From: Candidatus Doudnabacteria bacterium
Lineage (GTDB): Bacteria; Patescibacteriota; Doudnabacteria; UBA920
Direction of reading: 5' to 3'
Assembly: GCA_963837465.1 (NCBI GenBank)
Contig: CAWINB010000004.1
Coordinates: 394,853-458,852 of the forward strand
DNA length: 64,000 nucleotides
Below are positions 38,509-58,607 of this stretch, piece after piece (position 1 is the first letter of the stretch; each line of letters begins with the position of its first letter). Under the pieces are notes generated by a model. It had not been told where the DNA came from and ran no database searches. It worked only from the letters and a program-made list of their open reading frames with translations. The position numbers were made by a program, and so were the translations under genes.

Positions 38509-38510
38509 AA

Positions 38511-38584: not shown

Positions 38585-38586
38585 TA

Positions 38587-39834: not shown

Positions 39835-39860
39835 TTAACTTTTTGTGCTATAATATCAAT

Positions 39861-40067
39861 ATGCGCAATTGGTTTATGAATGATAAACATTTTGCTAATA
39901 ATAATGAAAAAGCTATTTGGCAACTGGAACAAATGGTGAATTTTGGTTTGGCCCGGGGGGAGAAACTTAACAAGAAACAACTGTTAAAATTTTGGGACAA
40001 CCTGAGCCTGGATCCGTCCAAAAAGAAATTTTTACAGGATATAATTCCCGAATTATGGACATCTTAA
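39861..40067 (+). CDS. small hypothetical protein (possible remnant of a partner gene of the adjacent AbiEii-like toxin)
   Basis: It is 68 aa counted from MRNWFMNDKHF; the ORF track entry 39606.. begins inside ftsA. Confidence 0.25.
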   Translation: MRNWFMNDKHFANNNEKAIWQLEQMVNFGLARGEKLNKKQLLKFWDNLSLDPSKKKFLQDIIPELWTS

Positions 40068-40847
40068 GTTCCAGGCAGATTTTACTTTTGGAAAGTTTTG
40101 GCAAAGAAAAATTCCTGAAACAAAACTTTTATCTGACCGGCGGCACTCCCTTGGCCGCTTTTTATTTGCGGCATCGTTATTCCGAAGACCTGGATTTTTT
40201 CAGCGAAACGGAATTTGATGTTTTAGAGCCTGTTTAATAAATTGCTTTTGAAGGCGATCTGCCAGAGGCGGAGGAGCTAAAAAGTTGAAGAAAAATGAGG
40301 CGATACCAGGGATTATCGGTGAATTTTGATGAGACTTTTGCAGCCCAATTCCTGAAATTGCGGCCAAAATGAATTTTTAAACAGGCTCTTAGACATTACT
40401 TCTTATTTCGGTAAAGTTAAGCAGGAAGCGGGCTTTGAAAAAATTGATTTGCAGCAAAGCTTTAACCGCAATCTTTATTTTTTAACTTTTCCGGAGGAAG
40501 TTTTGAAGCTGGAGTTTACCTATTTTCCTTTTCCCCGCATTGAGCGCGGGCCGGAACATTATGGAATTACCACTGACAGCCTTACGGATATAGCGGTCAA
40601 TAAATTATTTTCTGTCTACCAGCGTACCAAGGCCCGCGACTACATAGACTTATATTTTATTTGCAGGCGGGAAAATTTTACAATCCAGGATTTAATCGTC
40701 AAAGCCAGGGCCAAGTTTGATTTCCACATTGACCTGCTGCAGCTGGGGACAAAGTTTTCGCGGGCCGCCCAGGCAACGGATTACCCGCGAATGATAACAA
40801 AAGTTACCGACTCCGAATGGCAAGATTTCTTTAAGGATGAAGGATGA
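40055..40847 (+). pseudogene. AbiEii/AbiGii-family nucleotidyltransferase toxin gene, disrupted (two ORF fragments at 40055-40237 and 40449-40847)
   Basis: The N-terminal fragment has LTGGTPLAAFYLRHRYSEDLDFF (AbiEii/DUF1814 signature) and the C-terminal fragment continues the family. About 210 nt between them lack a continuous frame. Confidence 0.6.
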
Positions 40848-40919
40848 AGCCAAAAAACTCGGCAGTCAAATTTTGGAATAAGCGCGGCTTTCTTTGTCAC
40901 TGTAGGGCAACAAATACCC

Positions 40920-41015
40920 CCCGGCTCAGCCCAACTCGGCAGCATAGTAAAAAATTTAATGAACAACGAAAACGTGGCCAAAATAAGGAAATGGATGAAA
41001 AGCTTTTTGCCGTAA
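40920..41015 (+). other. diverged duplicate of the ftsA 3' end (encodes ...QLGSIVKNLMNNENVAKIRKWMKSFLP*)
   Basis: It is about 75% identical at the nucleotide level to the ftsA terminus at 39744-39834 and ends with the same MKSFLP-stop. Confidence 0.65.
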
Positions 41016-41152
41016 TATTGACGCCATAAGGTATAAAGGTTACTTATATATTATACCCTTAAATAAGGGTTAATTTTGTAATAATATATTAAATATTAAT
41101 GTCGGCTAAACTTGTGTGTATTATAAAAAAGTCTTGACTTTTTTGTAATATC

Positions 41153-41533
41153 GTGTATAGTAGTCATATTTATTTTTTTGACACGGGATTGGTGAATGGG
41201 GATGAGGGTAAAAAGTTTGAAAATTTTATGGCTGTCAGCCTGCTTAAATCGGCATTGGGGGAAACAGACTATAGCGGAAAGGCCCATGAAGTAAACTATG
41301 TGCGCACTAAAGAAGGCAGGGAGGTCGATTTTGCCCTGGTGGAGAACAATAAAATTATCAGCCTGGTTGAAGCCAAACTGGCCGATGGAGAACCGGATAA
41401 AAATCTGAAATATTTTTCAGAAAAATACGGCATTGCCGGAACACAAGCGGTTAAGGAGCTTAAGCGCGAAAAATCTTTGGGCAAAATTGACGTGCTTTCG
41501 GCCGAGAGGTATTTAAAAAGCCTGTTTTTATGA
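41153..41533 (+). pseudogene. C-terminal fragment of an AAA-ATPase/DUF4143-family protein (N-terminal ATPase domain missing)
   Basis: A YFFDTGL motif lies near its start, and no upstream coding region for an ATPase domain is present. Confidence 0.45.
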
Positions 41534-41609
41534 AAACAGTTTCGTAGCGGTCTCTAAAATCTTCTATAACAAACCATAAGTATAAGTAAGGGTAAATTTA
41601 TCCAAGTTC

Positions 41610-42929
41610 TTACTTTTCCTCAAACGCCGCCCATAGGGCGCGGAATTTGTCTACATAAGGCTGAGTTTCTGCTTTCAAATGATGCTGCCAATTGGCGCCA
41701 TAGTCCCGAATGGCGTGAGCTGCTGTAGGGGCGCCGCCATTATAGGCTGCCGCCAAGTACTCTCCCATAAACTTAGAATCCTGGGAAAATACTCTTCTTT
41801 GCTCCGGGCTGGCATTACTTAAATCTGAATCGAAAAGCAACAGGGAAGCCATTGCGCTATTTTGATGGTCGTCCATACCATCTCGAAAGCCTTTAACCAA
41901 CCTGGCTTCGGGATACTTTCGGGCAATCGATTCATAAGTATTAGGAATGAATTGGAACAAACCACCGGCTCCGGCGTTGCTATAGGCATAAATATAGGAG
42001 TATTCCCTATTAGCTCCTACAACGGTTAGCACTCTGTTAGTCAAATCGCCAATAACTTCTCGCTCAGCGTTGGCCTGGGTCAACGTCGGTACATTTGGCG
42101 CGGTTGGATGCTCTAATTTATGAGCCTCACGTTTAAAGACAAAGGGGTCAATATGTTCGCTCATGGAAAGTAGTAATGCTACCTTCATAGGCATGGCATC
42201 GGCCAAAAGTTTGCCTGGGAAAGCTTTGGATACTACCTTCCTCATTCGCAAAGCCTCCTGGGCCGCAATTAGTTGCCCGACTAAATAATCATAACCCTTT
42301 TTTCTTATGACTGGCGTGTCCAGGTCTTCGGTGTAGGGGGTATATATTTCTTCCTCAAAATTATTTTCGATTTGCAGCGCTCTTTTCAGGGCTAAAACTA
42401 CATGATGTTGGGGAGCCGTAATTTCAAACGCTGTGCCAATACCTAACGCCTCTCCTTTTACTACTTTAAAACCCTCCTTGTTAGGGGCGCCGTTTTGATC
42501 TACGTTTATGAACTCAATTTGGTTAGGGTGATTTACGGAATCAGTAGCCGCCAACAGGATATTGTAAGTTTTTAGCTTTTCTTTATGCTTTATAACAGGC
42601 GCCCTTTTTTGTCCTTTTCTTTTCTTCCCGTAAATCGGTACGGACTCAACTGTAAATCCCGCTTTTTCATCTTCTAAGCCAATCCAGGCCTGGTCAATAA
42701 TGCCAAAAATTTCCGGACGGTTAACATAAGCGTCTTCACTGCTTAGAGATTCTCCGCTAATGAATTTGGGCGGCCTCAACTCGCCTTCTTGTTCCTTTTT
42801 CACTTCTTGGGCCACTTTGGCCGAATCAACTTTTGACCCTTCGCGCGGCAGCCGGTTGCGGATAAAATTAGCGGCGGCTCCGGCTCCGGCGGCAATGAAT
42901 AGATCCCTTCTGGAAAATTTTTCCGGCAT
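41610..42929 (-). CDS. secreted lytic transglycosylase (SLT-domain) protein
   Basis: The N-terminus is Tat-like (SRRDLFIAAGAGAAA), and the SLT motif is YSNAGAGGLFQFIPNTY. Confidence 0.65.
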   Translation of the reverse strand: MPEKFSRRDLFIAAGAGAAANFIRNRLPREGSKVDSAKVAQEVKKEQEGELRPPKFISGESLSSEDAYVNRPEIFGIIDQAWIGLEDEKAGFTVESVPIYGKKRKGQKRAPVIKHKEKLKTYNILLAATDSVNHPNQIEFINVDQNGAPNKEGFKVVKGEALGIGTAFEITAPQHHVVLALKRALQIENNFEEEIYTPYTEDLDTPVIRKKGYDYLVGQLIAAQEALRMRKVVSKAFPGKLLADAMPMKVALLLSMSEHIDPFVFKREAHKLEHPTAPNVPTLTQANAEREVIGDLTNRVLTVVGANREYSYIYAYSNAGAGGLFQFIPNTYESIARKYPEARLVKGFRDGMDDHQNSAMASLLLFDSDLSNASPEQRRVFSQDSKFMGEYLAAAYNGGAPTAAHAIRDYGANWQHHLKAETQPYVDKFRALWAAFEEK

Positions 42930-42941
42930 AAAATTTTATAC

Positions 42942-43937
42942 TTAGTAATAAAGATCTTGTTTGTATTTGTTCATCAGGTCGCGGTAGTTTTTTTCAACCA
43001 TGACATGGTAACAAGGCTGGTTGCCTTCTTGTTCCGCTTCAACGATGCCTTTTTCTTTGAGTAAAATCAGACGGCCTTCCAGCCAGCGTTTTTGCTGCGC
43101 AGTTAAAGGCCTGGAGATTTTTTCCAGGGGTGAAACTGCGTTCCCCGCGAGATCTTTTTTAAATTCATCACCCCAGACAATATCAACTGCCGCCCCGGTC
43201 GGGTGCACGGAACGGCTGGAACGGTTTCGGTTCCCCACTCTGGCCAAATCACCCGATTGCACGTCCCAAGGCCGGACAGCCGAGGAAACCATAAGCGGTG
43301 GCGCATCAGGAAACTCCAGAGCGTAGTCGTGGGCCAAATCGGTTAGGAATTCGGCGGTCCATTCCGCGCAATAATCTCGTTTATATTTGCTGCCTTGATG
43401 GACTTCTTTTCGGTGGTGCGGGCCTGTAGTGTAATAGGTGAAGTCTCCATGCAGCGATAAGTAAGGATCAAGAGTTAAAAATTTATTAGTTGGCAATTCC
43501 ACAAGGTAGCCACCATGGGGATTAGGAATCCCTTCGCCTTCTTTGTTCCTCATGTATCCATTATCGTTGACTTCAAACTTCATATGTTGCCACATGGCTT
43601 CTTTGTCTCGCAGACGGCTTAATCCATCTTGATCGGCCATTTCATTTTGCCGGTTCAGCGATTCGCGTCTGCCCAATAATTGAGTGGGGATGGCGTTTTT
43701 TTCATGGCTTAAGTCTGCGACTTTGGCGTGCCCTGGTTGACCTTCTTTAGCTTCATGTTTAGCTTCGGGTTTGGCTGCTTTTTGTGCTTCGGTCGGAAGA
43801 GGTTTGGGTTTGCTGCTCTCCAAAGAAGCCAGTTTTTTTGCAATGCCCTCTCCTGCTTGCTCCAGCATTGCGCCACCCAAAAAAGCGCCGCCAAGCCTAA
43901 GTGCATCCCTTCGATCGTATCCTTCTCTTTTAGCCAT
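42942..43937 (-). CDS. secreted peptidase M15/LAS-family-like cell-wall hydrolase (tentative)
   Basis: An SxHxxGxAxD-like motif (SVHPTGAAVD) and a Tat-like N-terminus (RRDALRLGGAFLGGA) are present. Confidence 0.45.
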   Translation of the reverse strand: MAKREGYDRRDALRLGGAFLGGAMLEQAGEGIAKKLASLESSKPKPLPTEAQKAAKPEAKHEAKEGQPGHAKVADLSHEKNAIPTQLLGRRESLNRQNEMADQDGLSRLRDKEAMWQHMKFEVNDNGYMRNKEGEGIPNPHGGYLVELPTNKFLTLDPYLSLHGDFTYYTTGPHHRKEVHQGSKYKRDYCAEWTAEFLTDLAHDYALEFPDAPPLMVSSAVRPWDVQSGDLARVGNRNRSSRSVHPTGAAVDIVWGDEFKKDLAGNAVSPLEKISRPLTAQQKRWLEGRLILLKEKGIVEAEQEGNQPCYHVMVEKNYRDLMNKYKQDLYY

Positions 43938-44012
43938 AGAGGTTATTTTAAATAATATAAGTAATTATAGCATATTACGGGTAAGAAGCGACAAAAACCT
44001 ACTAAATAAGAC

Positions 44013-44041
44013 GCTTTTGCTATTGACAAAATATGGAAAAA
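44013..44041 (+). promoter_or_regulatory. perfect-consensus sigma70 promoter (TTGACA-N17-TATAAT) followed by a short hairpin with U-run, abutting the IS5 left end
   Basis: The promoter reads ttgaca aaatatggaaaaaatga tataat. Downstream aaaaacatca ttat tggtgttttt forms a hairpin. Confidence 0.4.
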
Positions 44042-44113
44042 ATGATATAATACAAAGTCAATATTATAAAGCGCCAGATAAAAACATCATTATTGGTGTT
44101 TTTAGCCGGCCCT

Positions 44114-45389
44114 TTAAGGGCCTGTTGCCGAATGCTTAAATTGGTAAAAAGATAAGCAAGCTGATTTTAGTCTAACCCTTTTTAGGATTAAGTTTGGTTA
44201 TCTTCGTATCAATTGTTTTGTTTGAGCGGTTTCGGAGGGAAATTTCAGGATACTTTTTCCTCTCCGGACGCGCTCCATCTCAAAGCCCCAATCTAGGGGC
44301 TTGTTTGTATTGGCAGAATGGTTATGGCTTTTTTAAGGTTATGGCAAATGGCTTCAAACGTGACCTGGAAAAATACTTTAGCCCGGCCTCTGAATTTGGC
44401 TCGTTTTCTGCATTTGGAGAAGGTGCCTTCAAAGGGCATTCTCATGGCGGATATCCAGCGATCCAAATCTTTGTTCTTGGTTTTGTTATTGTTCTTTCTG
44501 ATAGTTCCCGCGTGCAGACCGTGAGCTTTTAAAACATTATCGTTTTCTTTGCAGTCAAACAGCTTGTCGGAAAATACCATACCCTGTTTGGGGCAAATAC
44601 TGTCGGTAGTCTTGTAATCAGGTACATTAGCGGCGGTTACGGCCAGTTTGGTAATTAAACCGTATCTCATGTCCACGGCCTCGTGCCGCTTGTAGCCAAA
44701 CCAAATGCTGGTCTTGCTTTTGGCTCCCCAGCGGGCGTCTTTGTCGGTGGCGTAGTTTTTAACGTTTTTGTTGTTAAGTTTTTCCTCTCCGTCGGCTATG
44801 GCTTTGTCCCGTTCATCCCAGAGGGCGGTTTTGGTAATGATACTGGAAGCATCGATGAAGGTAAAAACATTGCCGACTAAGCCAAGTGATTCTAAATGCT
44901 TGTTAATACCGGTAAAAATATCGTAGAGTTTTTGTGCGCCAATTCTCTTTCGTAGCTTGCAAAAGTAGGTATGGTCAGGAGTTTGTTCTAGCAGGCCAAA
45001 GCCAGCAAACCAGCGGACAGCCATATTTTCCTTTACGCACTTTTCCATTTCCCGGTCCGAGTAGTCTTCCCAAAACTGGATAAGCAAAGCCAGAAAGCCT
45101 TTTTCTATGGCTATGCCGGTAGTGCCTAAATCGCTATACAAAGAACGTAAGGGAGAAACAAACTGCTCAAAGTCGATGATTTCCTTAAGTCTCCTAAATG
45201 GATGAGTGGCCTCTATTATTTTGTTAAAGATCTGTTGTTCTGTCTGCAAAAGAAACGGGCTGGTTTTATCATTGGGCTGTAACATTTTTTTATTTTCCTT
45301 AATGTTTACAGCTTAATTATATCATTTTAAAAACTTTTTTACTTGAGGAAAACTTAATATTTTTTGCCATTCGGCAACAGTCCCTTTAA
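44114..45389 (-). mobile_element. IS5-family insertion sequence with roughly 22-bp terminal inverted repeats
   Basis: Left end ttaaagggcctgttgccgaatg (44114-44134) matches the reverse complement of right end cattcggcaacagtccctttaa (45368-45389). Confidence 0.65.
44293..45285 (-). CDS. IS5-family DDE transposase
   Basis: The DDE_Tnp_1-like pattern has FIDASSIITK ... DKLFD ... and a C-terminal basic tail. Confidence 0.75.
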   Translation of the reverse strand: MLQPNDKTSPFLLQTEQQIFNKIIEATHPFRRLKEIIDFEQFVSPLRSLYSDLGTTGIAIEKGFLALLIQFWEDYSDREMEKCVKENMAVRWFAGFGLLEQTPDHTYFCKLRKRIGAQKLYDIFTGINKHLESLGLVGNVFTFIDASSIITKTALWDERDKAIADGEEKLNNKNVKNYATDKDARWGAKSKTSIWFGYKRHEAVDMRYGLITKLAVTAANVPDYKTTDSICPKQGMVFSDKLFDCKENDNVLKAHGLHAGTIRKNNNKTKNKDLDRWISAMRMPFEGTFSKCRKRAKFRGRAKVFFQVTFEAICHNLKKAITILPIQTSP

Positions 45390-45440
45390 CAAAATTTTCG
45401 ATTCACAAGTACCACGAATTTCGTCCAGGAGGACAACCCA

Positions 45441-46610
45441 ATGAAGAAGCAACACATGACGGCGAGCACGCTCGCCATTTTCGCGCTGATGGTTCTGGCC
45501 ACCATGACCGGATGCAGCAAACCCCAACCCGCGCCTGTTCAACAAAAAGCCGCGGAACAGCCCGAGCCGCCGCCGGCGCCCAAGAAGGTGTCCGTCACCT
45601 TTAAATCGTCGGAGGCCCCGTTCTATCTATCGGAGCATTACAGCGCTGGCAGAATCCAGGAGTTTAGGACGCAAAGCAATAAGTCTGACGATGTGTGGAC
45701 GGCTACCTACGACGAGATGAACCTTGGTAATAACAATCAGTACGCGACCCTGGTCCAAGACGGCAATATTGTGCTTACCAAGCGCATTCCGGCAGAGAAG
45801 TTCTCGGGCACCGAAGACAAGAGTATAGACTTAGACGACAGCGAGCTTGAGGCTCTCAGTCCTGACGGCTGGGTCGTGCGCCCGAATGTTCGCGTGCACG
45901 CGTTCAAGAGCGAATTCGCCGATACCAAGACCGTTAAAGTCGGGGGTGACGACAAGACCCTTGACGAACTCGCGAAGAGCCAGTACCCCTGGAGGATTAC
46001 CCGCTTCGGCCAAGGTTTCCAGGCCGAAGTGGATAACGATGTCCTCCTCAATGGCTTCCGTCCGGACGGAGTGCGCCTGTTCCTGCGGCGCCAAGAGGAG
46101 CTTAAGGCCGGCGACGACCTGGTCGAAGCCATTAAGGACGGATCCGTAACCGGTTTGGCCGTTGAGCAGCAGATTGGGAACTTCCATGAGTACGCTGCTC
46201 TGTTCGATTCTATGCCGGATGCCATTAAAGGTCCGGCGATCGATACGCTGGTTACCATCATGATTCCCAAAGTGACGGCCAAGGCTGACGAGCCTTCTGC
46301 TAGAAACGCTGCTGCTCGAGTCCTGCTAGATTTTACTTGGGACATGGTCAAGGCCATGCCGCCAACGATGGACTCAGCATGCAGTAACTGGCCAGATACA
46401 GTCGCAGACAGGCCGGTTCCGAACTATGGCAATCTCACCCAAAAGCAGTGCATGGAGAGGGTGGATATGCTTAAGTTCTGGGCGCGGCGCGGGCAGTTTT
46501 CATTCGAGAGGACCAAGGCCGATGTGGCCAAGGCGCTCGGTTCAGCTCCTGCTCCGGCCACCGGCGGCATTCCGAAAAAAGGTATCCCCAAGAAGGGAGC
46601 TGGTAAGTAG
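45441..46610 (+). CDS. lipoprotein, hypothetical (high-GC gene)
   Basis: A lipobox MTGCS follows a signal peptide, and the C-terminal tail is Gly/Lys-rich. Local GC is clearly above the window average. Confidence 0.5.
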   Translation: MKKQHMTASTLAIFALMVLATMTGCSKPQPAPVQQKAAEQPEPPPAPKKVSVTFKSSEAPFYLSEHYSAGRIQEFRTQSNKSDDVWTATYDEMNLGNNNQYATLVQDGNIVLTKRIPAEKFSGTEDKSIDLDDSELEALSPDGWVVRPNVRVHAFKSEFADTKTVKVGGDDKTLDELAKSQYPWRITRFGQGFQAEVDNDVLLNGFRPDGVRLFLRRQEELKAGDDLVEAIKDGSVTGLAVEQQIGNFHEYAALFDSMPDAIKGPAIDTLVTIMIPKVTAKADEPSARNAAARVLLDFTWDMVKAMPPTMDSACSNWPDTVADRPVPNYGNLTQKQCMERVDMLKFWARRGQFSFERTKADVAKALGSAPAPATGGIPKKGIPKKGAGK

Positions 46611-46776
46611 TAGTTGCTTTACCTCAAAATCCTCACTATAGGATCAGGGCGAGCAGTTTGCATCTAAATGATGTATTCTGCCCGCCCTGTTTTATTAGTT
46701 TAAATAGATATAAAGTTTTAATTATAGGAAAAAATATAATTTTCCTTTTAAATAAGGTACTAGATAATACTTATTC

Positions 46777-50372: not shown

Positions 50373-51890
50373 ATGGAAAATCCATTTTCAAAAATTGCTA
50401 AAGCATATAAGGATAGTGATTTTGCTTTACGCGGGCAGACCAAAAGAGAAACCAAGGCTTTAGCCAGGGAAGAGGAGTTGACTGACGAGGCTTTGGTAGA
50501 CAAAATCCTCCAAGACCGGGGTTTTGGTAAATTTTTAGTGGACAGCAATCCAAAATACCAGAGCATGAACTTTGACAAGAAAGATTTTAAGGATATTCGG
50601 GAAAAGTATTACGCCTATACGGAATCCAAAAAGGTAGCCACGGAACTTAGGACTGTCTACAGCCAAGAGATAATGCAGGATTTGGATATTGAGCTAACAC
50701 CGGCTGAGCAAGATCAGGTATTTGAGAGCATGGATGTGGCACTAAGCAGCAGACTGCAAAAAGACGGCAGGAATATTGAAATTTCCAGGCTTAAAAATAA
50801 GCTGGAGGAATATAATAAATTAAAAGAACGGATTGAGCAACTTGAAAGCAAATTCCAGCAGGCGGGGGTCAACGAAGCTGTTATTGAGGGAATGTCCAGC
50901 GAAAAGGGAATGGATAAGCTAAGGGATCGCGAGAAGTTGGCAAAAACGGCTAAAAAGATAAAGGTGCCGTTTATGAAAGGCCGTAACCGCGGCATACAGG
51001 AAGCGCGTCAGGATTTAGTGGGTAATTTTGAAATTGAGAGAGAAAATATTAAAGCCCAATTCCAGGAGGTCAAAGCCGGCAGAAAAGAAGCGGAAGGACT
51101 GCGGCGACAACTCGACGAATTGAGGCAATATTTTTTGGTGCAGATTAAGATAGCGGACTCGGTCATAGACCGGGCAAGATTCCGGGCCAACGAAGTCCTT
51201 AAGGCTCGCGTAGAAACTGCCACCATCGAATACCAAAGACATGACCCTGCTTCAACCAAAAAAATGCAGGAGTTAGCTGACCTGCAGGCTTATTCAGAAC
51301 TTATGGACTCCACAGCCAGAAGCAAAACCGATGAAGATTATATGAATGATTTAGACGCGAAGCATCATTTTGGTGGGCGCAGGATTACGACTGCGGAGGC
51401 AGACCAGTTGGAAGCCTGGAGAGACCAGGAAGAGACCCGTGCAGCTTCAACTTTAGACACTACCGATTCAGCCAGTAAATTATTGGGCAAAATGCGTGAA
51501 GGCCGGAAGAAAAAAGGCAAAGGCGGCATTGATTATACAGCTGGCGGCCAGGTTGTTGACTTTTATGACCTTTATGACTTGGACACTGATACAGAGTTGG
51601 TAAAGAATTTGGATAGTATGCTGGAGAAGGAACTGGAGACTGTGATGGAACGAGCGGTTTTCACTTCCCGTACTATTCAGCAGTTTGAAGGCGCCTTGGA
51701 TCCGGTTTTAAAACGCTGGGAAGCCGGTCAGTATAATACCCGTGGCAAGGTCAGGAATTTTATCGCGGACAAGTTAGTTGCTCTTTGCAATACTCCTTCT
51801 ATGGAACCGGTTATGAAGGTGCAGGTTAAAGCTTTGCTGTATAAGCGCGGCATTTTTAAAGGCTTAACGCGCGTAGCGATACCTAAATAA
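50373..51890 (+). CDS. hypothetical coiled-coil protein, first gene of a four-gene operon
   Basis: It is charged and helical (505 aa) with no catalytic motif recognised. Confidence 0.4.
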   Translation: MENPFSKIAKAYKDSDFALRGQTKRETKALAREEELTDEALVDKILQDRGFGKFLVDSNPKYQSMNFDKKDFKDIREKYYAYTESKKVATELRTVYSQEIMQDLDIELTPAEQDQVFESMDVALSSRLQKDGRNIEISRLKNKLEEYNKLKERIEQLESKFQQAGVNEAVIEGMSSEKGMDKLRDREKLAKTAKKIKVPFMKGRNRGIQEARQDLVGNFEIERENIKAQFQEVKAGRKEAEGLRRQLDELRQYFLVQIKIADSVIDRARFRANEVLKARVETATIEYQRHDPASTKKMQELADLQAYSELMDSTARSKTDEDYMNDLDAKHHFGGRRITTAEADQLEAWRDQEETRAASTLDTTDSASKLLGKMREGRKKKGKGGIDYTAGGQVVDFYDLYDLDTDTELVKNLDSMLEKELETVMERAVFTSRTIQQFEGALDPVLKRWEAGQYNTRGKVRNFIADKLVALCNTPSMEPVMKVQVKALLYKRGIFKGLTRVAIPK

Positions 51891-51923
51891 TACCGATTTA
51901 AATTATAAAATAAAATAATATAT

Positions 51924-52214
51924 ATGAGCGTAGACCTATCAAAACTAGAACAGCTAGTTGAAGAAGAAAATTTTGAGCAAGCACAAAGTATGTTGGTGGA
52001 TTATTTTAGCCAACCCTTAACTCCGGAAGAACGCGGGCAGGCTTATATTGAAGTCGCCTCCGTTTATCTGGATATTGCCAATTATTTTAACAAGCAAAAG
52101 GCCGAGCTTCTTGAGGCCGGAATAAAAGCTTTGGCCGAACTGGACAAGCAGAGAAAGCAATTGGATGACTTGATAGATCTGGACAAAGTTCGCAAAGCCA
52201 TTAAAGACTCCTAA
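51924..52214 (+). CDS. small acidic helical protein, hypothetical
   Basis: It is 96 aa and lies 34 nt after the previous gene. Confidence 0.3.
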   Translation: MSVDLSKLEQLVEEENFEQAQSMLVDYFSQPLTPEERGQAYIEVASVYLDIANYFNKQKAELLEAGIKALAELDKQRKQLDDLIDLDKVRKAIKDS

Positions 52215-52230
52215 GAGCCTGTTTAAATTT

Positions 52231-52548
52231 ATGGATTCATTTGATATTCCAATGCCACCAGAAATCCGGCAGTTTTTGGAAGATATGCTCAAAGACGCGG
52301 ATGCTATGCCGGAGGCCGAGGAGCTGAAAGAAATGATGCTGAGCGATTTATACACCCGCTTGCAGGCCAAGCTGTTTTTACTTTTAGCCGACAAGTTGGA
52401 AGAAGACCAACTGGAAACTTACAGCAGGCTATCTACTTTGGATCCAGCCCAGGGAAACGCTTATTTAGATGATGTCCTGCCAAACTATAGGCAATTGTTT
52501 TTGCAAACTCTGGCGGAATTCAGGGGTGTGTTTTTAGGCAAAAAATAA
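52231..52548 (+). CDS. small acidic helical protein, hypothetical
   Basis: It is 105 aa and lies 17 nt after the previous gene. Confidence 0.3.
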   Translation: MDSFDIPMPPEIRQFLEDMLKDADAMPEAEELKEMMLSDLYTRLQAKLFLLLADKLEEDQLETYSRLSTLDPAQGNAYLDDVLPNYRQLFLQTLAEFRGVFLGKK

Positions 52549-52561
52549 GTTAAAACTTTTT

Positions 52562-55500
52562 ATGCCCAGGGAATATCGTCAAGGCACAGTTCTTGACCAA
52601 ATAGACGAGGAAAACAAAAACCGCGATACCGACATTGGCCATATTGAGCAGTCCCACCAGCCGGTTTTTCACAAGTCACAAAAATCCCGCGATGAGATTA
52701 AAATTAAACGCAAGCTGGATCTCGATAAGCCCGAAGTCCAGACTTTTAAGATTACCGCCGCGGCTGTGGACGAAATAATAGATGCGGCCGCTCAGAGAGT
52801 GGGCGAGCAAAAGGCTCAGGAATATTTGGATAAAGCGGGTTGGATAAAGAAATCTTTTGTGCGTCCCAGTGAAAAGGCACTGATAGAAAAGTTTAAAGAA
52901 GAAGTCAAAGCCGAGATTCTGGCCAACCGCAATTTAATGGCCAGCATTGAGGGCAGGGCGCTGCTGAATTCAAAAGTTGAAAAATTGCACGCCGATTCTG
53001 ACAGGGCGACACAGGCTATTTTTGAGGTATTGGTGGAAAGAGCTCATAATTTAGAGCGTAAATCTAATGAAGAATTTTGGGGACTTAGTTCAGGTCCGGA
53101 AGATAAAAAATCAAAACAAAAGAATGAAAAATACGAAACCAGGGAAAAAATCGCGCATACTGCGTCTATGGATGCCGCTGCCGCGGACTTGATCGCCAAA
53201 TGGGCTTTTGAGGAAATTCCTGACCGCAACGCTTTTGACGCCTTAGCTGAAGAGAAAATTTTTCGCAAATTAACCACCAAAGCCAATCTTGGCAAAGCGG
53301 AAACTTTTGCTTCCAATCTGTTTTTTGTCGCCGAGCAATATAAAGAGTCAATAGAAAAAACTTTAAAGAAAGCCGCTAAAGAATTTTCCCCGGCCGAAAA
53401 AACTAAAGTCCGTAATTATTTAAGGGGATCGGTTAGGTTAGATATCAATATGGCCCTGAGTAAGGCGGATATGGCTCGCCGCAAGCCCGAGGGTGTTATG
53501 CGCGCGGTGGAAGCAGTGGTTGATTTTACCCAAATGCCTTATTTGGCAAAACTAGGTAAATTTGCCGGTACTGGATTTGGCAAATTTTTGTCTAAAATTC
53601 CTGGTGGGAATTTTATGAGTAAAACAATTGACCGTCTATGGGGCTTAAGCGTTGGTAACCCTTTAGTTTATGCTTGGGTGGGTAACAGGTTAGCTTACGC
53701 GGCGGCTTCCGGAGTTGGTATTAAAACCGCAATGCTGGCCGGCACAGCTTTAGCCGTGGGTTTGGGGCCCGGCACTATTATGGCTATTGGCGCGGCTCTG
53801 GGCGGCGGCAGTTATTTTGCTTTGAGAAAAGCCGCCGAAATGAGCCGTGATAGGCGCAGGCGTGAAGACAAAGCCATTTTGGGAACAGGCCCTAAAGAAA
53901 GTCTGCAACCTGTAGATACCAGGGAAATTGGCCTGAAGCTTATTTTGCAATTGACTGAAAAAAAGGAGCCATTAACAGAAGAGGAAAAACAAAAAATTGG
54001 CCAATGGGCGGCGGCTTTGCGTTTGCATAATGTCCATAATGTTAATATTTTAGGAGTATCCAGGGAAGAAGGAGAAAGTAATAAAAGTAATATTGTGGCA
54101 GTGGATAATTTGCAAGAGGCTATTTTAAATTTGTTGGAAAAAAAACATGCGGAATTTCAGCATTACGACAGTAGCGCAAATAATTGGGACGCGCAAGCCC
54201 GCGATTTTAGCCGTTATATAGGTGACGCGGAAAGGAAGTTGCTGGAGAAAATCAAACTGGTCGATAAAGAAAAAGCCGCGGAAATTGTGCGGGGTGCTTT
54301 GGTTGCGGGCGTGGTGGGTGGCGCTATCGCGGGCGTCGGTTCTATATTAAGTCCCGAAGTCCTGAAGTTACTTAAAGAGGGGGTAAATGTCGCTTCCCAC
54401 AATCTTGGCGGACATGATGTCTTTGATACCAACTATAATACTTATGCCGAAGCTTTGTGGCATAAGGGGGCTGAAAAGCTTGGCTGGGTTCCTGCTGCCC
54501 CCACTCATTTTAATGGTGAAATGGTGCCAAATGATTTTGCTATTTTTAATGGTCACACTCAAATTAAATTACCGGTAGGGTATGGTAGTTTTCATTTACA
54601 TAATAACAGCGGTGATTTTATTGTCATTACAGATCCGGCACAGCATGTTGTGGGAAACCCCATTCAAGTTGGTGCTGACGGTATAATAAACCCGGCCTCC
54701 TGGAACCATTTTACCCATGACTTAGGGTGGCAAGTTAATCATGCAGACGCAGCCGCGGCCGCTCACGGCGGCATCCCTGGCCATTCCCGCAGCTTTACGG
54801 ACTGGCTGCATGACTTAAGGTCTCATTTGCCCAACGGAGTTAAGATAGAAGAAGCTCATTTTAAGGGAAATTATGACAACTTAACCCCAAATTCAGATTT
54901 AAATGAGCTTAATTTCCATATTAATGTGGCAGGGAATGGTGATGTCCACTGGGATGTGCAGAACTTAATGCAGTATGGCTCATTTCATCAAGTTGGAGGA
55001 ACTTTTATTCCGGGCGCTGCTCCCTATCAGCCTGATATGACGGCATTGCTTCATTCCGGCGACCTTAAATTTGTAATTATTCCCGATGCGGCGCATCCGC
55101 ATGACGCCATATTTTTAAATATGGACTCAACAGGACACGCTATTGTTCCCAAAGATATAGCGCAGTGCCTGTTAAATTCCGCCACCGGCCACCCCAAAGA
55201 AGGTGTGCTTATTGGCTCCGCTCATATTTTAGACAGACCCGGCGGTGGTAAAGATATGATAATGATCAACGCAATTAAGGGTCATGGCGAGGCTGTAAAT
55301 TATGACATGTCTTCGGCCGCTACCCCTACGGGCACTACAGCAGGTCCGGCAATTTGGGATGCCCGCCCTCCGATTGTATACACCAGCGAAGCCCCGTACG
55401 GTCCTGCCGGTTATCGCCGCCAGACGGACGAGGATATAACTACCGCACGGGAAAAACGGGAAACAAAAGAATTGGAACGGCAGTGGAAAGAGCAACTTGC

Positions 55501-56959
55501 TAAAATGTCTCCGGAAGAAAAAATGCTTATGGCGCAGAATGATATGCTGGCTGTTTTAAGCGGATCTGACAAAACGCTGACCGCGATTATTCCGGCTTTT
55601 GATAAAACATCCGCTAGGTACCGATTAGATGAAGCACAGCAGGAAAAATTACTTGTAGATATCTGTAAGGCTAAGGGTATGACTGATGAAGAAGTAAAGA
55701 CCGCGTTGGCTCAACAAGTTCAACAGAACGCCGCGCCTGTAGCAGTTGCTGCGGGCGGGGGTACCCCTGAGGCGCAAGCATCCTCTACTCCTGCGGCCCA
55801 GTCGTTTTCCACTAAAAAAACAGCATTGCTCAATAGTTTGCTGGCAAGAGAAATGGAAGCAAGCAGGAAAGCCGCGTTTCCCGAAGCTGCTCCTGACAGG
55901 CGGTTCCTCAGCGAACTTAATAAAAGAGAATCCAATCGTGCTCCGCATTTGGAATTCAGCGCGGACGATGGTTTATTGAAAAAGAAAACGGATTTAGATT
56001 TTATAAACTCCCTGGCCGAGTCTGTCCATGACTTTTTGGTCGCGGAAGGTCTGGACGCAAATGTTTACAGCCTGGCATCTTATAAAATTAAAATTACGGA
56101 AACCCCTCCTTATGGTTGGAATGAAAAGGATAAGAGCTTGTTGTCTGTGGGAACAACTGAATCTCCAAATAAAATAGCTTTGGATATTTTGGAAAAAATT
56201 AAAACTCCGGATTCGCCCCTTGAATATAGATATAGGGACCTGACGGAAGTTAATAATTCAGCAGATAATAAAGAGCCGACCTTAAAATTTAGCTATGATC
56301 CAGGTGTGTTGATTGGCATTGGTCAAAGTGCCGTTAACAATTATGGCAAACGTTTGCATAGCGAACTACGAAGCCAGATCGGCACTGACCCAAGGTTTGA
56401 AGACGCTCTGTTAAGAATTAATTTTATAAACCCTCGGGATCCAATGCCCGATGTTCCGGATATTGATGCTCATGGGTATACTATTATGACGTTGCCTTTT
56501 GGCGACAATGTTAAAAGAGATGCAGGGATAATTTTAAGGGAAATGAAACGATTGGCACCCGAGACATTGCCGCCGGTTGATAGAGTGTTTTTGAGGGATA
56601 TTAATAATTTGCCCGGAAACCAGAATCCCAATATAGCATTTGATATGCCGGATTCAATAATCAGAGAAATGGGATCACCGGAAGCCAAGATTTATGTGAC
56701 AAGAATAGCGGCAAAAATGGAAGCGAAGCTCAATCAACTGAAAGCGGCTAATGGAGGAAGGGATAGGGCCTTTTTTGAATCTTTGGTTATTTCAGTTGGG
56801 GTTAGCAGGAATGCGGCTGATTTGCACGGCACTCTTGGAGCTGACGGTAGTTTTCAGTTCACTTTTCCCGCTTACAAAGGAACGGTTAATAGGGAGCCGG
56901 ATAATAGAATAGAGGCCAGAATTAATCAGCAGTTTGAAGAAATAAGGAATGCGCCCTAA
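52562..56959 (+). CDS. giant protein (1465 aa) with Gly-rich hydrophobic segments, function unknown
   Basis: It starts 14 nt after the previous gene. It contains putative membrane-inserting Gly/Ala-rich segments (GTALAVGLGPGTIMAIGAALGGGSYFAL; LVAGVVGGAIAGVGSIL). No known catalytic motif was recognised by eye. Confidence 0.5.
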   Translation: MPREYRQGTVLDQIDEENKNRDTDIGHIEQSHQPVFHKSQKSRDEIKIKRKLDLDKPEVQTFKITAAAVDEIIDAAAQRVGEQKAQEYLDKAGWIKKSFVRPSEKALIEKFKEEVKAEILANRNLMASIEGRALLNSKVEKLHADSDRATQAIFEVLVERAHNLERKSNEEFWGLSSGPEDKKSKQKNEKYETREKIAHTASMDAAAADLIAKWAFEEIPDRNAFDALAEEKIFRKLTTKANLGKAETFASNLFFVAEQYKESIEKTLKKAAKEFSPAEKTKVRNYLRGSVRLDINMALSKADMARRKPEGVMRAVEAVVDFTQMPYLAKLGKFAGTGFGKFLSKIPGGNFMSKTIDRLWGLSVGNPLVYAWVGNRLAYAAASGVGIKTAMLAGTALAVGLGPGTIMAIGAALGGGSYFALRKAAEMSRDRRRREDKAILGTGPKESLQPVDTREIGLKLILQLTEKKEPLTEEEKQKIGQWAAALRLHNVHNVNILGVSREEGESNKSNIVAVDNLQEAILNLLEKKHAEFQHYDSSANNWDAQARDFSRYIGDAERKLLEKIKLVDKEKAAEIVRGALVAGVVGGAIAGVGSILSPEVLKLLKEGVNVASHNLGGHDVFDTNYNTYAEALWHKGAEKLGWVPAAPTHFNGEMVPNDFAIFNGHTQIKLPVGYGSFHLHNNSGDFIVITDPAQHVVGNPIQVGADGIINPASWNHFTHDLGWQVNHADAAAAAHGGIPGHSRSFTDWLHDLRSHLPNGVKIEEAHFKGNYDNLTPNSDLNELNFHINVAGNGDVHWDVQNLMQYGSFHQVGGTFIPGAAPYQPDMTALLHSGDLKFVIIPDAAHPHDAIFLNMDSTGHAIVPKDIAQCLLNSATGHPKEGVLIGSAHILDRPGGGKDMIMINAIKGHGEAVNYDMSSAATPTGTTAGPAIWDARPPIVYTSEAPYGPAGYRRQTDEDITTAREKRETKELERQWKEQLAKMSPEEKMLMAQNDMLAVLSGSDKTLTAIIPAFDKTSARYRLDEAQQEKLLVDICKAKGMTDEEVKTALAQQVQQNAAPVAVAAGGGTPEAQASSTPAAQSFSTKKTALLNSLLAREMEASRKAAFPEAAPDRRFLSELNKRESNRAPHLEFSADDGLLKKKTDLDFINSLAESVHDFLVAEGLDANVYSLASYKIKITETPPYGWNEKDKSLLSVGTTESPNKIALDILEKIKTPDSPLEYRYRDLTEVNNSADNKEPTLKFSYDPGVLIGIGQSAVNNYGKRLHSELRSQIGTDPRFEDALLRINFINPRDPMPDVPDIDAHGYTIMTLPFGDNVKRDAGIILREMKRLAPETLPPVDRVFLRDINNLPGNQNPNIAFDMPDSIIREMGSPEAKIYVTRIAAKMEAKLNQLKAANGGRDRAFFESLVISVGVSRNAADLHGTLGADGSFQFTFPAYKGTVNREPDNRIEARINQQFEEIRNAP

Positions 56960-57014
56960 ACAGATTTTGTTTATTTACCAACAGGCTTACTTAGCAGTGT
57001 CGTCTAATAAGATA

Positions 57015-58289
57015 TTATGGTGACTTAGCCGGAGTACTTTGGGTAGTTGTCGGTGTCACAACGGTGGTCGGCTGGATTTGCGCTTGGAGCAAACTTTCCA
57101 CAATCGCGATAATGCTAAAGGACAGGATGGCGACTACAAGGCCCAGGATTGCCCAGGTGATGGTTTTTTTGGCTTTAGTGATAGCTTCTTCGCTGCCGGA
57201 GCCCACAATCATTTGAAAACCTCCCACTATAATAAACACCACGGCCAATACCCCAAGTACGGAAAGCAAACCCTGCGCCACCAGCAAAAACGCGTGCACC
57301 AAATCACTTTCGGGCAAGGGGTCGTAAAGGCATGATGTTGGATCGGTGCAGGGGGTGGTGGAATTTGGTGTGGCGGCGTTAGCACCGCTTGCGGAAGTTA
57401 CTGGCGCCACGCACACACCTTGGGAAACGTTGCAAGTATAGCCAACTTCATCGGCGGCGTTGCAATCTGGGTCACTAGTGCAAGCCCTGCATAAACCGGC
57501 ATTAGTGCAAAGCTGGGAAGCGCATTGGCTAAAGTCAGTACAAGTCGCGCCATTAGGCAAATTTGTTGTTGCGGCTGTTGGCGCAACGCATACGCCTTGG
57601 GAAACGTTGCAAGTATAGCCAACTTCATCAGAGGCGTTACAATCAGCGTTACTTGTGCAAGCCCGGCAAAGGCCTGCATTAGTACAAAGTTGAGAGGCGC
57701 ATTGGCTGAAGTCGGTGCACCCTCCTCCATTTGGGACGTTGCTCGTTGCGGCCTGTGTGAGAGTAATGCCAACTGGAGATGATTCAGTTAAAACTGGCCA
57801 ATTATTTGAGCCATCAGTGACTTTAACCATAGCCGCTACCTGCAAGCTGCTAGGTATGTTCCCATTGTTCCAAGAAGAAGATGGAGTGAAGGTGTTGTTT
57901 GGCAATGAGAATGTCTGGGAAGTTTGAGCCGGTTGTCCGCTCTGGGCATTATAGGTTAATGGGAAAACAATATCAGATAGCAATCTATTGCCAGTAGTTT
58001 TATCATAAACAGTTACATAGACGTTAAGCGCGTTTGTATTGCTGTTCGGAACAGGACAAGTGCCTGTTAAGCTGCCGTTGTCTGTTAGTAGGTTATTCAC
58101 TGTTACAGAACCGGAAATAGTAAATGGCGTATTATTAGCTCCAGATTTTGGATTTACGTCAAAGCTTATTTGCGCGGCGCAACTGGCGGAAGAGGCTGTT
58201 GCAATATTTGGAGTAAGCGAAACCAAGCCAAAAATCTCCACCATCAAAAAGCTTAAGGCAAAGACTATTTTTACTATTTTTTGTTTCAT
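57015..58289 (-). CDS. secreted Cys-rich protein with duplicated module and C-terminal two-helix hydrophobic anchor
   Basis: It has a signal peptide. The module TDFSQCASQLCTNAGLCRACTS..DCNA.DEVGYTCNVSQGVCVAP is duplicated. The C-terminal LSVLGVLAVVFIIVGGFQMIV...ILGLVVAILSFSIIAIV resembles a pilin-like double helix. Confidence 0.45.
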   Translation of the reverse strand: MKQKIVKIVFALSFLMVEIFGLVSLTPNIATASSASCAAQISFDVNPKSGANNTPFTISGSVTVNNLLTDNGSLTGTCPVPNSNTNALNVYVTVYDKTTGNRLLSDIVFPLTYNAQSGQPAQTSQTFSLPNNTFTPSSSWNNGNIPSSLQVAAMVKVTDGSNNWPVLTESSPVGITLTQAATSNVPNGGGCTDFSQCASQLCTNAGLCRACTSNADCNASDEVGYTCNVSQGVCVAPTAATTNLPNGATCTDFSQCASQLCTNAGLCRACTSDPDCNAADEVGYTCNVSQGVCVAPVTSASGANAATPNSTTPCTDPTSCLYDPLPESDLVHAFLLVAQGLLSVLGVLAVVFIIVGGFQMIVGSGSEEAITKAKKTITWAILGLVVAILSFSIIAIVESLLQAQIQPTTVVTPTTTQSTPAKSP

Positions 58290-58367
58290 AAATAAGTTTA
58301 ATTTTATCGTTATTATTATACAATAAATTAATTAAATTGGGAATTTTAGCCTGCCAGACTGAGGTTT

Positions 58368-58396
58368 TTGACAAAGTTTTGCATATAATCCATAAT
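58368..58396 (+). promoter_or_regulatory. sigma70-like promoter (TTGACA-N17-CATAAT) upstream of ftsZ; a second extended -10 (TGTTATAAT) lies at 58482-58490
   Basis: The promoter reads ttgaca aagttttgcatataatc cataat; the second element is tgttataat. Confidence 0.45.
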
Positions 58397-58525
58397 TGGA
58401 TTCATAAAGAACTGTGAAGCCGTTTATTGTTGCCTATAAAATCCCAAGGATTTCAAATATCTGTCAGGTTCCCACTTTTTGTGTTATAATCTTTGCAGTT
58501 AAAAAACAAAAATTTAAAATCAAAA

Positions 58526-58577
58526 ATCAAGACCATCCAGAAAGCTTTCGCTTAAGTCTTGATTTTATTTTTTTTAT
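58526..58577 (+). promoter_or_regulatory. hairpin plus U-run (terminator-like) in the ftsZ leader
   Basis: The pairing caagac ... gtcttg is followed by attttattttttttat, immediately before the ftsZ RBS. Confidence 0.3.
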
Positions 58578-58607
58578 CTATTATTCTGTAACTTAAGGGG
58601 TTCCGTT

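Follow-up and report, generated by a model that had tools for sequence, protein, structure and literature searches.

How did ftsA and ftsZ, whose pairing is among the most conserved in bacteria, come to lie 18,773 bp apart in a member of Candidatus Doudnabacteria (Patescibacteria, or candidate phyla radiation, CPR)? The locus in question lies in a stretch of 64,000 nucleotides, hereafter the window, in which both genes are intact (Table 1). The FtsA of the window has the same length as the FtsA of at least 60 Doudnabacteria loci and is 60-82% identical to them, and its FtsZ is 78-96% identical to that of the relatives in which the two genes are also split. The extent of the interval (39835-58607), taken from the open reading frame (ORF) list and Pfam scans, agrees with the approximately 18.7 kb of the original prediction, which regarded it as an insertion hotspot or island inside the division genes; each of the interval elements listed there was also found (Pfam, repeats, ORFs, GC). 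Its description of ftsA as the tail of the division and cell wall (dcw) cluster did not hold. The genes 5' of ftsA are hisS, a 23S_rRNA_IVP gene, HIT, rpsU and yqeY instead of the dcw genes ftsQ, ddl and mur, ftsZ starts 18.8 kb downstream of ftsA and not directly after it, and neither ftsQ, ftsL nor ftsB was found next to the window ftsA. The same non-dcw genes precede ftsA in relatives that keep ftsA and ftsZ adjacent. Conservation of the dcw cluster has been documented in general, with the CPR explicitly excluded (PMC8871954).

We compared the window with 80 genome loci retrieved with FtsA as the query and 80 metagenome loci retrieved with FtsZ, with flanks of up to 10 kb; for most relatives the view covers 10 kb around either ftsA or ftsZ, and many intervals are incomplete. 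In none of the genome loci with an FtsA at least 68% identical to that of the window is ftsZ found beside ftsA. The gaps measure 2,566 bp (L011; L-numbers designate the loci of relatives), 5,393 bp (L014), 7,557 bp (L002) and 9,848 bp (L017), and exceed 10 kb in six loci. Two further complete intervals, obtained through DUF5663 look-ups, span 10.8 kb (L163, from the same genome as L004) and 10.1 kb (L168), and the 18.8 kb of the window is the longest interval among the loci compared. In more remote Doudnabacteria, further CPR members and loci of other phyla, wherever the sequence extends far enough downstream, ftsZ always lies no more than approximately 1 kb from ftsA; the gap is -1 to 184 nt in almost every case, with two exceptions of 596 and 948 nt. 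Viewed from the ftsZ side, the metagenome contigs with an FtsZ at least 78% identical to that of the window have no ftsA upstream, and those at 77% or below have it. The split is common to all 20 species-level genomes of the clade and to about 15 more metagenome contigs, and in a neighbor-joining tree of FtsA the split genomes form one clade whose sister clade is in the adjacent state. Because it is shared by all of these genomes and contigs, the split appears to be ancestral within the clade. The synteny comparison with relatives, suggested together with the original prediction, therefore has a divided outcome: ftsA and ftsZ are indeed adjacent outside one clade, and the reading that had been set against an insertion, namely that relatives share the split and the arrangement is ancestral, applies by half, as the split is clade-wide and the genes are adjacent elsewhere.

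Both flanks of the interval are preserved. On the left, hisS-HIT-rpsU-yqeY-ftsA and six to seven genes further upstream are collinear in 21 loci of both states (10 kb of synteny). On the right, ftsZ is followed in both clades by nrdR and a ribonucleotide reductase gene (RNR), and the genes 3' of the window ftsZ (p125, nrdR and RNR) are the same as in relatives. As the gene order on either side is collinear in the two clades, the split can be explained by one ancestral insertion. Judged from gene order, the simplest history would be a single insertion between ftsA and ftsZ in the ancestor of the clade, and neither a rearrangement nor a private gain of this genome.

The DNA between the two genes changes strongly from species to species. 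Most interval ORFs have no homologue in other loci, and the recurrent families vary in combination and orientation. A Pfam scan of 91 interval proteins of relatives returned only 21 families, each in one to four proteins, including AbiEii, MNT/HepT, BrnT, PIN, DDE transposases and DUF5663. A pilin-like gene on the minus strand is present in six loci, p396 in six, p500 in five, p96 in four, AbiE in three intervals and the pair of SLT and DUF5715 genes in two. The interval proteins shared between species are 14-50% identical, in species with FtsA and FtsZ that are 75-85% identical. The clustering of interval ORFs leaves p389, p505, the DUF4143 fragment and the IS5 copy as the only features found in the window alone, and given that most of its families recur in the intervals of other species at 30-50% identity, the cargo of the window seems to be of old residence. 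None of the recurrent interval families turned up in adjacent-state loci at up to 10 kb from ftsAZ, and almost no interval ORF has a homologue within that distance in loci of the adjacent clade.

In some adjacent-state relatives (L018, L023, L026, L030 and L047) the spacer between ftsZ and nrdR ranges from about 0.4 to 8 kb, and is thus variable there too. Homology between the genes of this spacer and the interval genes of the split clade was undetectable, and a derivation of the interval genes from the spacer was rejected on this ground.

One gene pair stands out from this turnover. A profile search detected DUF5663 in 15 loci, all of them from the clade, and in each case it adjoins a protein of 900-2000 aa, which we call the giant protein. 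In type A loci (the window, L003, L006, L012, L037, L088, L089 and L120) DUF5663 is followed by the giant protein, while type B loci (L004/L163, L087/L167, L092/L165 and L168) have a gene of about 300 aa, the giant protein, DUF5663, three small genes and then ftsZ; in L002, the giant protein and DUF5663 lie immediately 5' of ftsZ. By a crude hydropathy heuristic, 53 of 109 interval ORFs (49%) have a transmembrane (TM)-like segment, compared with 56 of 198 upstream ORFs (28%), and such a segment is N-terminal in 39% of the interval ORFs and in 18% of the conserved upstream genes. The interval thus reads, from its predicted proteins, as a clade-restricted and fast-evolving core of putative envelope proteins accompanied by passengers. 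As a working view, the cargo may serve a role in the envelope or in host contact under diversifying selection, because of its TM and export features, its pilin-like and peptidoglycan-hydrolase neighbors, its very rapid divergence and the lack of the core in L011, the smallest complete interval.

We consider the following history probable. DNA would have been inserted once between adjacent ftsA and ftsZ genes in the common ancestor of one Doudnabacteria clade; the neighborhood (hisS-HIT-rpsU-yqeY-ftsA on one side, ftsZ-(p125)-nrdR-RNR on the other) would have been left otherwise untouched, and the site would have persisted as a flexible locus. The clade core, made of DUF5663 and the giant membrane protein and often joined by a protein that resembles type IV secretion system (T4SS) pilins and by other exported proteins, would have been inherited, shuffled, inverted, lost and swapped among lineages, and selfish elements (AbiE, MNT-HepT cassettes and insertion sequences, IS) would have gathered at the edges and inside. 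The version in the window would be a mosaic of families from the clade pool with the private IS5 copy, DUF4143 fragment and p505. Lineages may have exchanged cargo through recombination, with the conserved flanks at ftsA and ftsZ as anchors, and the locus may also be flexible among present-day strains. Finally, ftsZ, no longer co-transcribed with ftsA, would be served by a dedicated extended -10 promoter and leader hairpin of the clade. We have good confidence in the whole of this explanation, that is, in an ancestral single insertion, a persistent flexible locus and a dedicated ftsZ promoter and leader. The hotspot of the original prediction thus finds support in the adjacent outgroups, the collinear flanks, the turnover from species to species, the toxin-antitoxin (TA) cassettes, the IS and the gene-end remnants, and is neither recent nor specific to this genome. 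Several points weigh against our explanation. The phylogeny is a neighbor-joining tree of a single gene (FtsA) without support values; the membrane and secretion calls come from the hydropathy heuristic mentioned above; the cargo families of relatives were searched for in ftsAZ neighborhoods only; the nearest relatives are about 80% identical in ftsZ DNA, with no conspecific or near-identical genome among those compared; and the modest tetranucleotide deviation of the interval, described below, neither proves nor excludes a foreign origin.

Three other explanations have to be weighed against an ancestral insertion. An assembly artefact, or an inversion or translocation that displaced ftsZ, might be suspected given the metagenome-derived source, the repeats in the interval and the breaks of independent short contigs at 40253-40360 and 57600. 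However, independent Logan contigs (run ERR10755945) reproduce 37242-40252, 40361-45770, 48683-50128 and 57600-61153 at 99.97-100% identity. They span three junctions, namely ftsA to AbiE, the segment from the AbiE C-terminal fragment and ftsA remnant through DUF4143, SLT, DUF5715 and IS5 to p389, and pilin to ftsZ. This independent cover excludes 45771-48682 and 50129-57599, and p1465 is on record on one 868-kb contig, the source contig. More than 30 independently assembled relatives have the same split, and both flanks are in the gene order of the adjacent state, hence there was no inversion or translocation. The chimeric join that had been raised as a caution is excluded as far as possible by the clade-wide split and the Logan contigs, and we give this explanation almost no weight. 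A recent, genome-specific horizontal island at the ftsA-ftsZ junction (an integrative element, a remnant of an integrative and conjugative element (ICE), or a prophage) is only slightly more credible and is largely refuted. It would account for the TA remnants, the repeat of the ftsA 3' end that resembles attachment (att) sites attL/attR, the IS with its target duplication, the higher GC at 47-50 kb, the pilin-like domain of conjugal-transfer type, the lytic-transglycosylase-like genes, and the tetranucleotide correlation with the rest of the window, which drops to 0.77-0.80 at 43.5-52.5 kb. Yet the whole clade has the split, and most cargo families recur in the intervals of other species. Among all interval ORFs, the only integrase or recombinase found with Pfam, NCBIfam and PHROGs is the IS5 DDE transposase; neither VirB4/VirD4 nor other conjugation or phage structural genes were found in the interval, where only the pilin-like domain and an endolysin-like SLT segment (PHROG) recall them, and p500 has no relative on viral contigs. 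No att repeats surround the whole 18.8 kb: the ftsA-derived repeat spans 39835-41014 and bounds only a cassette of 1.2 kb, without any ftsZ-side repeat in the window. The composition profile proposed with the original prediction shows a mild deviation inside the interval that overlaps with other parts of the window (GC 0.40-0.57 inside and 0.37-0.56 elsewhere; tetranucleotide correlation 0.77-0.94 inside and 0.80-0.95 outside), with equally low values at 10.5-15 and 31.5-34.5 kb, and only IS5 looks recent. This composition fits a long residence or donors of similar composition better than a fresh foreign island.

In the remaining explanation, the core of DUF5663 and the giant protein, with or without a small p96-like protein, would be retained between ftsA and ftsZ for a joint function with both, as a lineage-specific component of the divisome or septal envelope, and the island traits would be due only to hitch-hikers that arrived later. 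The pair lies inside the ftsA-ftsZ interval in every one of its 15 clade loci, although this regularity is biased by a sampling confined to the ftsAZ neighborhood. In type B, seven co-oriented genes lead directly into the ftsZ leader, and a DUF5663-like or p96-like gene is the last before ftsZ in L002, L014, L017, L093, L094, L097, L108 and L109. The family is limited to about 20 clusters, which matches the size of the clade, and ftsQ, ftsL and ftsB do not adjoin ftsA here. On the other hand, the complete 2.6-kb interval of L011 holds two small genes only, neither of them DUF5663 nor the giant protein, and both families went undetected in the complete intervals of L014 and L017. Core proteins are 14-45% identical where FtsA and FtsZ are 75-85% identical, which is atypical of divisome parts and typical of exposed surface proteins. 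In addition, order and orientation relative to ftsZ vary between types A and B, and in the window a divergent pilin-like gene separates the pair from ftsZ. We judge a divisome component improbable, albeit less so than a recent island, and keep the ancestral insertion with a flexible cargo as the preferred history.

If ftsA and ftsZ are split, how is ftsZ transcribed? In the window ftsZ must use its own promoter, as the gene immediately upstream is divergent. Two promoter-like sites were found (58368-58396 and 58461-58490), as had been predicted. The leader hairpin expected at 58368-58577 is also present, but the proper hairpin is confined to 58523-58566 and the wider span includes the promoters. 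The block TTGTG(C/T)TATAAT is invariant in five aligned clade loci with differing upstream genes, approximately 120-130 nt before ftsZ, and is seen in additional clade loci. A conserved element, AAA(A/U)CAAG...CUUGAUUUU-UAUUUUUUUU-AUCUAUUAU, lies 3' of the -10 box. A 27-mer of the leader occurs a single time in the window, and 12 loci, all from the split clade, each contain its 16-mer core once, always on the ftsZ strand and, in the loci checked, upstream of ftsZ. The element upstream of ftsZ was recorded in L002, L011, L085, L087-L089, L092, L105, L107, L117, L120, L163 and the window. An equivalent hairpin folds in 13 of 13 species tested, with a conserved basal stem and an inner stem that differs in sequence yet pairs; this conservation is based on single-sequence folds, and RNAalifold on a MAFFT alignment gave no pairs, the 5' arms being misaligned. 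In several species, there is an additional first hairpin with a CCAAAAUAGCGG-like loop. Rfam returned no family at a credible score for the leader, and permissive E-values gave chance-level matches only.

A stem-loop followed by a U-run between promoter and ORF is the layout of an attenuator or intrinsic terminator, and the order of promoter, hairpin, ribosome binding site and start codon points to a putative attenuator or leader. Alternatively, the element may encode a small RNA, with a weaker second promoter behind it that overlaps the U-run and the ATCTATTAT box. In either case, the split clade has a dedicated and conserved ftsZ upstream region that is missing from adjacent-state relatives. 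Its presence may be explained by the loss of co-transcription of ftsZ with ftsA, and it suggests independent and possibly attenuated transcription of ftsZ. In model bacteria, ftsZ is fed from promoters inside the upstream dcw genes (the ftsQAZ organization). The window resembles this organization in having more than one promoter-like site 5' of ftsZ and in an ancestral ftsA-ftsZ order. It differs in that no dcw genes precede ftsA, ftsA and ftsZ are 2.6-18.8 kb apart, the gene just 5' of ftsZ in the window is divergent, and a terminator-like hairpin stands between the promoter and the start codon.

Both ends of the interval have attracted TA cassettes. Behind the window ftsA lies an AbiE cassette of 1.18 kb, between the gene and a decayed copy of its 3' end. 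Its AbiEii is in two fragments, corresponding to profile positions 8-41 and 120-224 of 238, with stop codons and an insert bounded by inverted repeats between them. L015, in contrast, has an intact AbiEii of 244 aa with the same small ORF straight after ftsA. No AbiEi antitoxin was detected: the 68-aa ORF has no PADLOC or PHROG match and a longer ORF with the same stop (39606-40067) has no Pfam match. Because AbiEii is in two fragments and the 68-aa ORF has no AbiEi domain, the window AbiE is, as read from its sequence, a remnant and not a working system. The AbiEii nucleotidyltransferase domain in the window, L012 and L015 is shared with AbiE systems of type IV TA and abortive infection, from which the window copy differs by its break and the undetected AbiEi. 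The palindrome AAGAGCCTGTTTAA, which forms the core of the 42-nt inverted repeats at the AbiEii break, occurs three times in the window, at 40224, 40377 (minus strand) and 52213; two copies bracket the AbiEii break and one lies between p96 and DUF5663. This count is borderline above chance (three matches in 4 of 100 shuffles).

Over 83 nt, the decayed ftsA copy shares 80% identity with 39751-39833, and its translation still ends in ...LGSIVKNLMNNENVAKIRKWMKSFLP before the stop codon. Its identity to the 3' ends of ftsA in relatives reaches 82% (81-82% for L003 and L005), compared with only 76-80% for the resident copy, and it is ambiguous which of the two 3' copies in the window is the original. 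The same arrangement recurs with other cargo. In L004/L163 an MNT-HepT cargo follows ftsA, with a repeat of 115 nt at 87% identity and a remnant still in frame, and the intact AbiE of L015 is accompanied by an ftsA 3' repeat of 48 nt at 79%, so that ftsA-side cassettes with a duplicated ftsA 3' end are found in three species and with two cargo types. MNT and HepT pairs occur in L004/L163, L083 and L107. On the ftsZ side, a second MNT-HepT family, only 35% identical to the ftsA-side one, lies between the conserved leader motif and ftsZ in L163, L107 and L083; here the leader motif is duplicated, and L107 also duplicates the first ftsZ codons. The cassettes lie at 2896-4100 and 13131-13863 in L163, 1111-1872 in L107 and 9284-10333 in L015.

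These repeats indicate that TA cassettes devoid of an integrase have repeatedly entered at the anchor ends, each time probably duplicating 20-120 nt of local sequence. They may have done so by Campbell-type integration of a circular fragment with the gene end on it, by homology-facilitated illegitimate recombination, or by a site-specific route with the recombinase encoded elsewhere. Some integrative elements target the 3' ends of genes (tRNA, tmRNA and protein genes) and bring a replacement 3' end, and their integrase-less derivatives are known as cis-mobilizable elements. The likeness lies in a cassette of 1.0-1.2 kb that follows ftsA with a repeat of its last 48-120 nt, the left copy being the functional one, and in the analogous duplication of the ftsZ leader motif around the MNT-HepT cassettes. 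However, neither the cassettes nor their vicinity contain an integrase, the repeats are 68-89% identical and vary in length by species, and the repeated sequence is the local site (ftsA end or ftsZ leader) and no fixed att core. A homology-driven insertion, Campbell-type or by homology-facilitated illegitimate recombination, is at least as likely as a 3'-end integrative mechanism. A more ambitious proposal joins these observations: TA cassettes would park at the ftsA and ftsZ ends by carrying or creating copies of the gene end or leader, the leader would represent a new cis-regulatory RNA, either an attenuator or a small RNA, in control of ftsZ dosage since the uncoupling, and the DUF5663/giant pair would be a possible envelope or division partner. 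We hold this combination to be doubtful. If true, addiction modules that use the termini of essential genes as landing pads would be a so far undescribed way of insertion.

Table 1. Annotated features of the ftsA-ftsZ interval and its two anchor genes, in window coordinates
Feature	Position	Strand	Evidence or remark
ftsA, 415 aa, intact, left anchor	38587-39834	+	Pfam FtsA PF14450 6e-36, SHS2_FTSA 7e-28
Degraded AbiE-type cassette	39826-40847	+	AbiEii matches (Pfam, PADLOC) on two fragments
Promoter-like site of AbiE cassette	39826-39854		Promoter scan
68-aa ORF of AbiE cassette	39861-40067	+	Also present before AbiEii in L015
AbiEii N-terminal fragment	40055 (or 39992)-40237	+	Pfam, PADLOC
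Inverted repeats bracketing the AbiEii break, 42 nt	40199-40240/40374-40415
AbiEii C-terminal fragment	40449-40847	+	Pfam, PADLOC
Pseudo-copy of the last ~40 ftsA codons	~40898-41014	+	Direct repeat with 39712-39834
C-terminal fragment of a DUF4143 (AAA-ATPase-associated) gene	41153-41533	+	Pfam profile 102-159 of 160; PADLOC PDC-S01, C-terminal part only
SLT-like protein	41610-42929	-	Pfam 7.7e-4, below gathering score; PHROG endolysin 7e-7
DUF5715	42942-43937	-	Pfam E 1.5e-12
Perfect consensus promoter TTGACA-17-TATAAT with TG	44023-44051	+	Promoter scan, 12/12 matches
IS5-family insertion sequence	44113-45389	-	22-nt terminal inverted repeats 44113-44134/45368-45389, 91%
IS5 transposase, intact, 330 aa	44293-45285	-	Pfam DUF772 + DDE_Tnp_1
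p389, orphan, N-terminal hydrophobic (lipoprotein-like) segment at residue 7	45441-46610	+	No homologue in other loci
Perfect consensus promoter before p500	46777-46805		Promoter scan
p500, membrane/secreted	47082-48584	+	Hydrophobic segments; relatives in L015, L016, L034, L037
p396, membrane/secreted	48934-50103	+	Hydrophobic segments; relatives in L005, L012, L016, L088, L105
Consensus promoter before p505 operon	50238-50266		Promoter scan, perfect
Four-gene operon p505, p96, DUF5663, p1465	50373-56959	+	Intergenic gaps of 33, 16 and 13 nt
DUF5663	52231-52548	+	Pfam; type A core with p1465
p1465, giant membrane protein, 1465 aa	52562-56959	+	Last gene of operon
Cys-rich exported protein, C-terminal two-TM T4SS-pilin-like domain	57015-58289	-	Pfam T4SS_pilin 5e-8
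Second promoter-like site 5' of ftsZ	58368-58396	+	Promoter scan
Extended -10 promoter of ftsZ, TGTGTTATAAT	58461-58490	+	Promoter scan
ftsZ leader element: hairpin, U-run, ATCTATTAT box	58523-58584	+	Fold and conservation
Leader hairpin AAAAUCAAGAC...GUCUUGAUUUU	58523-58566	+	11-bp stem, then UUUUAUUUUUUUU; U-run to ~58577
ftsZ, 406 aa, intact, right anchor	58608-59828	+	Pfam Tubulin 4e-47, FtsZ_C 6e-36

The remaining cargo of the window is mostly made of proteins without database matches; against PHROGs and NCBIfam, the cargo proteins returned essentially nothing. Two minus-strand genes form a unit in the order DUF5715, SLT-like gene (41610-43937), and a homologous pair in opposite orientation is found in the L037 interval (45% and 52% identity). 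A SxHxxGxAxD-like motif (SVHPTGAAVD) and RR-containing N-termini were recognized by eye in this unit, and the two proteins are probably exported peptidoglycan hydrolases. Their N-termini are twin-arginine-like (...SRRDLFIAAGAG... and ...DRRDALRLGGAFLGG...), which hints at an export of the twin-arginine translocation (Tat) type in a CPR organism.

The IS5 copy, assigned to that family by its features, is flanked on both sides by a TT(T)AA target duplication and has no second copy in the window; it looks like the sole recent element of the interval. It lies between p389 and the perfect consensus promoter upstream of it, which now points into the left end of the IS, and the insertion probably uncoupled p389 from this promoter. 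No match to p389 was found in Pfam, NCBIfam or PHROG. p389, p500 and p396 make up a block (45441-50103) of proteins with N-terminal hydrophobic segments and a GC content of 48-57%, with 0.52-0.57 in the p500/p396 stretch, and p500 and p396 are neighbors in L016 too.

Within the four-gene operon, DUF5663 is modeled as a five-helix bundle (predicted local distance difference test, pLDDT, of 90); a search for structural neighbors gave nothing informative, and no paper on DUF5663 was found. The N-terminal part of the giant protein is long and rich in coiled coils; the protein also has glycine-rich TM segments and a conserved ectodomain of some 330 aa, and it matches nothing in PDB (profile search), Pfam, NCBIfam or PHROG. 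The ectodomain has 20 relatives among 1.84 billion cluster representatives, all but one in proteins of approximately 900-1700 aa. Word-indexed searches with p1465 alone or with a nine-sequence profile found the protein itself and one homologue, low-complexity words having probably swamped the candidates, and an AlphaFold model of the p1465 ectodomain from a two-sequence alignment is unusable (pLDDT 36). The pilin-like gene has an internal tandem duplication of 174 nt (57402-57752), its protein matches the NCBIfam Mbov_0395 pilin-like family below the cut-off, and its relatives are on the minus strand in L017, L034, L084, L085 and L092/L165. Of a type IV secretion system, only this T4SS_pilin domain was found among the scanned window ORFs, with no VirB4 ATPase or VirB6-like protein.

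Other mobile features lie outside the interval. The segment 30482-34650, in which tRNA-Val(cac) precedes a large serine recombinase on the minus strand (30744-32126), an orphan of 339 aa and a kinase of the APH family, corresponds to approximately 0.5-0.7 kb in relatives, between LytR-like and signal-peptidase genes. It looks like a genome-specific integrative islet, and the tetranucleotide correlation in this segment is low (0.80). The 23S_rRNA_IVP (PF05635) gene upstream of ftsA (36836-37222) is enclosed by inverted-repeat arms of 33 nt (36803-37274). Downstream of ftsZ, a PDDEXK_3 gene (59863-60279) is enclosed by perfect arms of 19 nt (59827-60317), the first of them starting at the stop codon of ftsZ. 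Both families are found at other intergenic sites in L015, L017 and L167, and these units look like mobile mini-cassettes that resemble rRNA intervening sequences, but in mRNA operons. Further upstream, an rve-type integrase-like ORF (10771-12057, minus strand) and an IS630-like pair (HTH and DDE_3, 14212-15248) fall into the low-correlation zone at 10.5-15 kb, and an inverted repeat of 65 nt with 94% identity (15295-15358/22346-22410) brackets the gyrA-topA segment and is a possible inversion substrate.

Taken together, these observations describe an ultra-small and probably host-dependent clade that would have long carried 3-19 kb of fast-evolving putative envelope genes and selfish cassettes between ftsA and ftsZ. 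They suggest that this lineage can do without co-transcribing ftsA and ftsZ, that a new and conserved promoter and leader of ftsZ arose alongside the uncoupling, and that a division locus can act as a recombination-anchored showcase of surface-protein diversification. The split and adjacent states, as well as the type A and type B cores, offer a marker for the clade, and DUF5663 and the giant protein, both restricted to the clade, are candidates for a part in host interaction or in the envelope biology of this uncultured group. In the literature, we found no paper on the ftsA-ftsZ split in Doudnabacteria, its cassette insertions or the ftsZ leader.

What kind of locus is it, then? Flexible islands and hypervariable regions between conserved genes are known from other bacteria, for example hypervariable region 2 (HVR2) of SAR11 between rRNA genes and the islands for O-antigen and other surface structures. 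The ftsA-ftsZ interval is found at the same position in all informative clade members, with syntenic flanks and a content that differs over 2.6-18.8 kb. It shares with flexible islands the fixed site between conserved anchors, a content that differs in each related genome, a cargo mostly of putative exposed or envelope proteins without known function, TA modules and IS as passengers, and a small compositional contrast with the genome. Given the absence of an integrase, of att repeats around the full interval and of genes for transfer or phage functions, the locus appears to behave like a flexible genomic island or hypervariable region, and not like an integrative element, ICE or prophage. It differs from the known islands in that the variation is seen here between species and genera instead of strains, and in that a clade-specific core of DUF5663 and the giant protein persists. 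The locus does not amount to a new principle; its unusual traits are that it lies between ftsA and ftsZ, which all other lineages sampled keep side by side, that it persists clade-wide with a core of its own, that its cassettes duplicate gene ends, and that a new conserved ftsZ promoter and leader accompany it.

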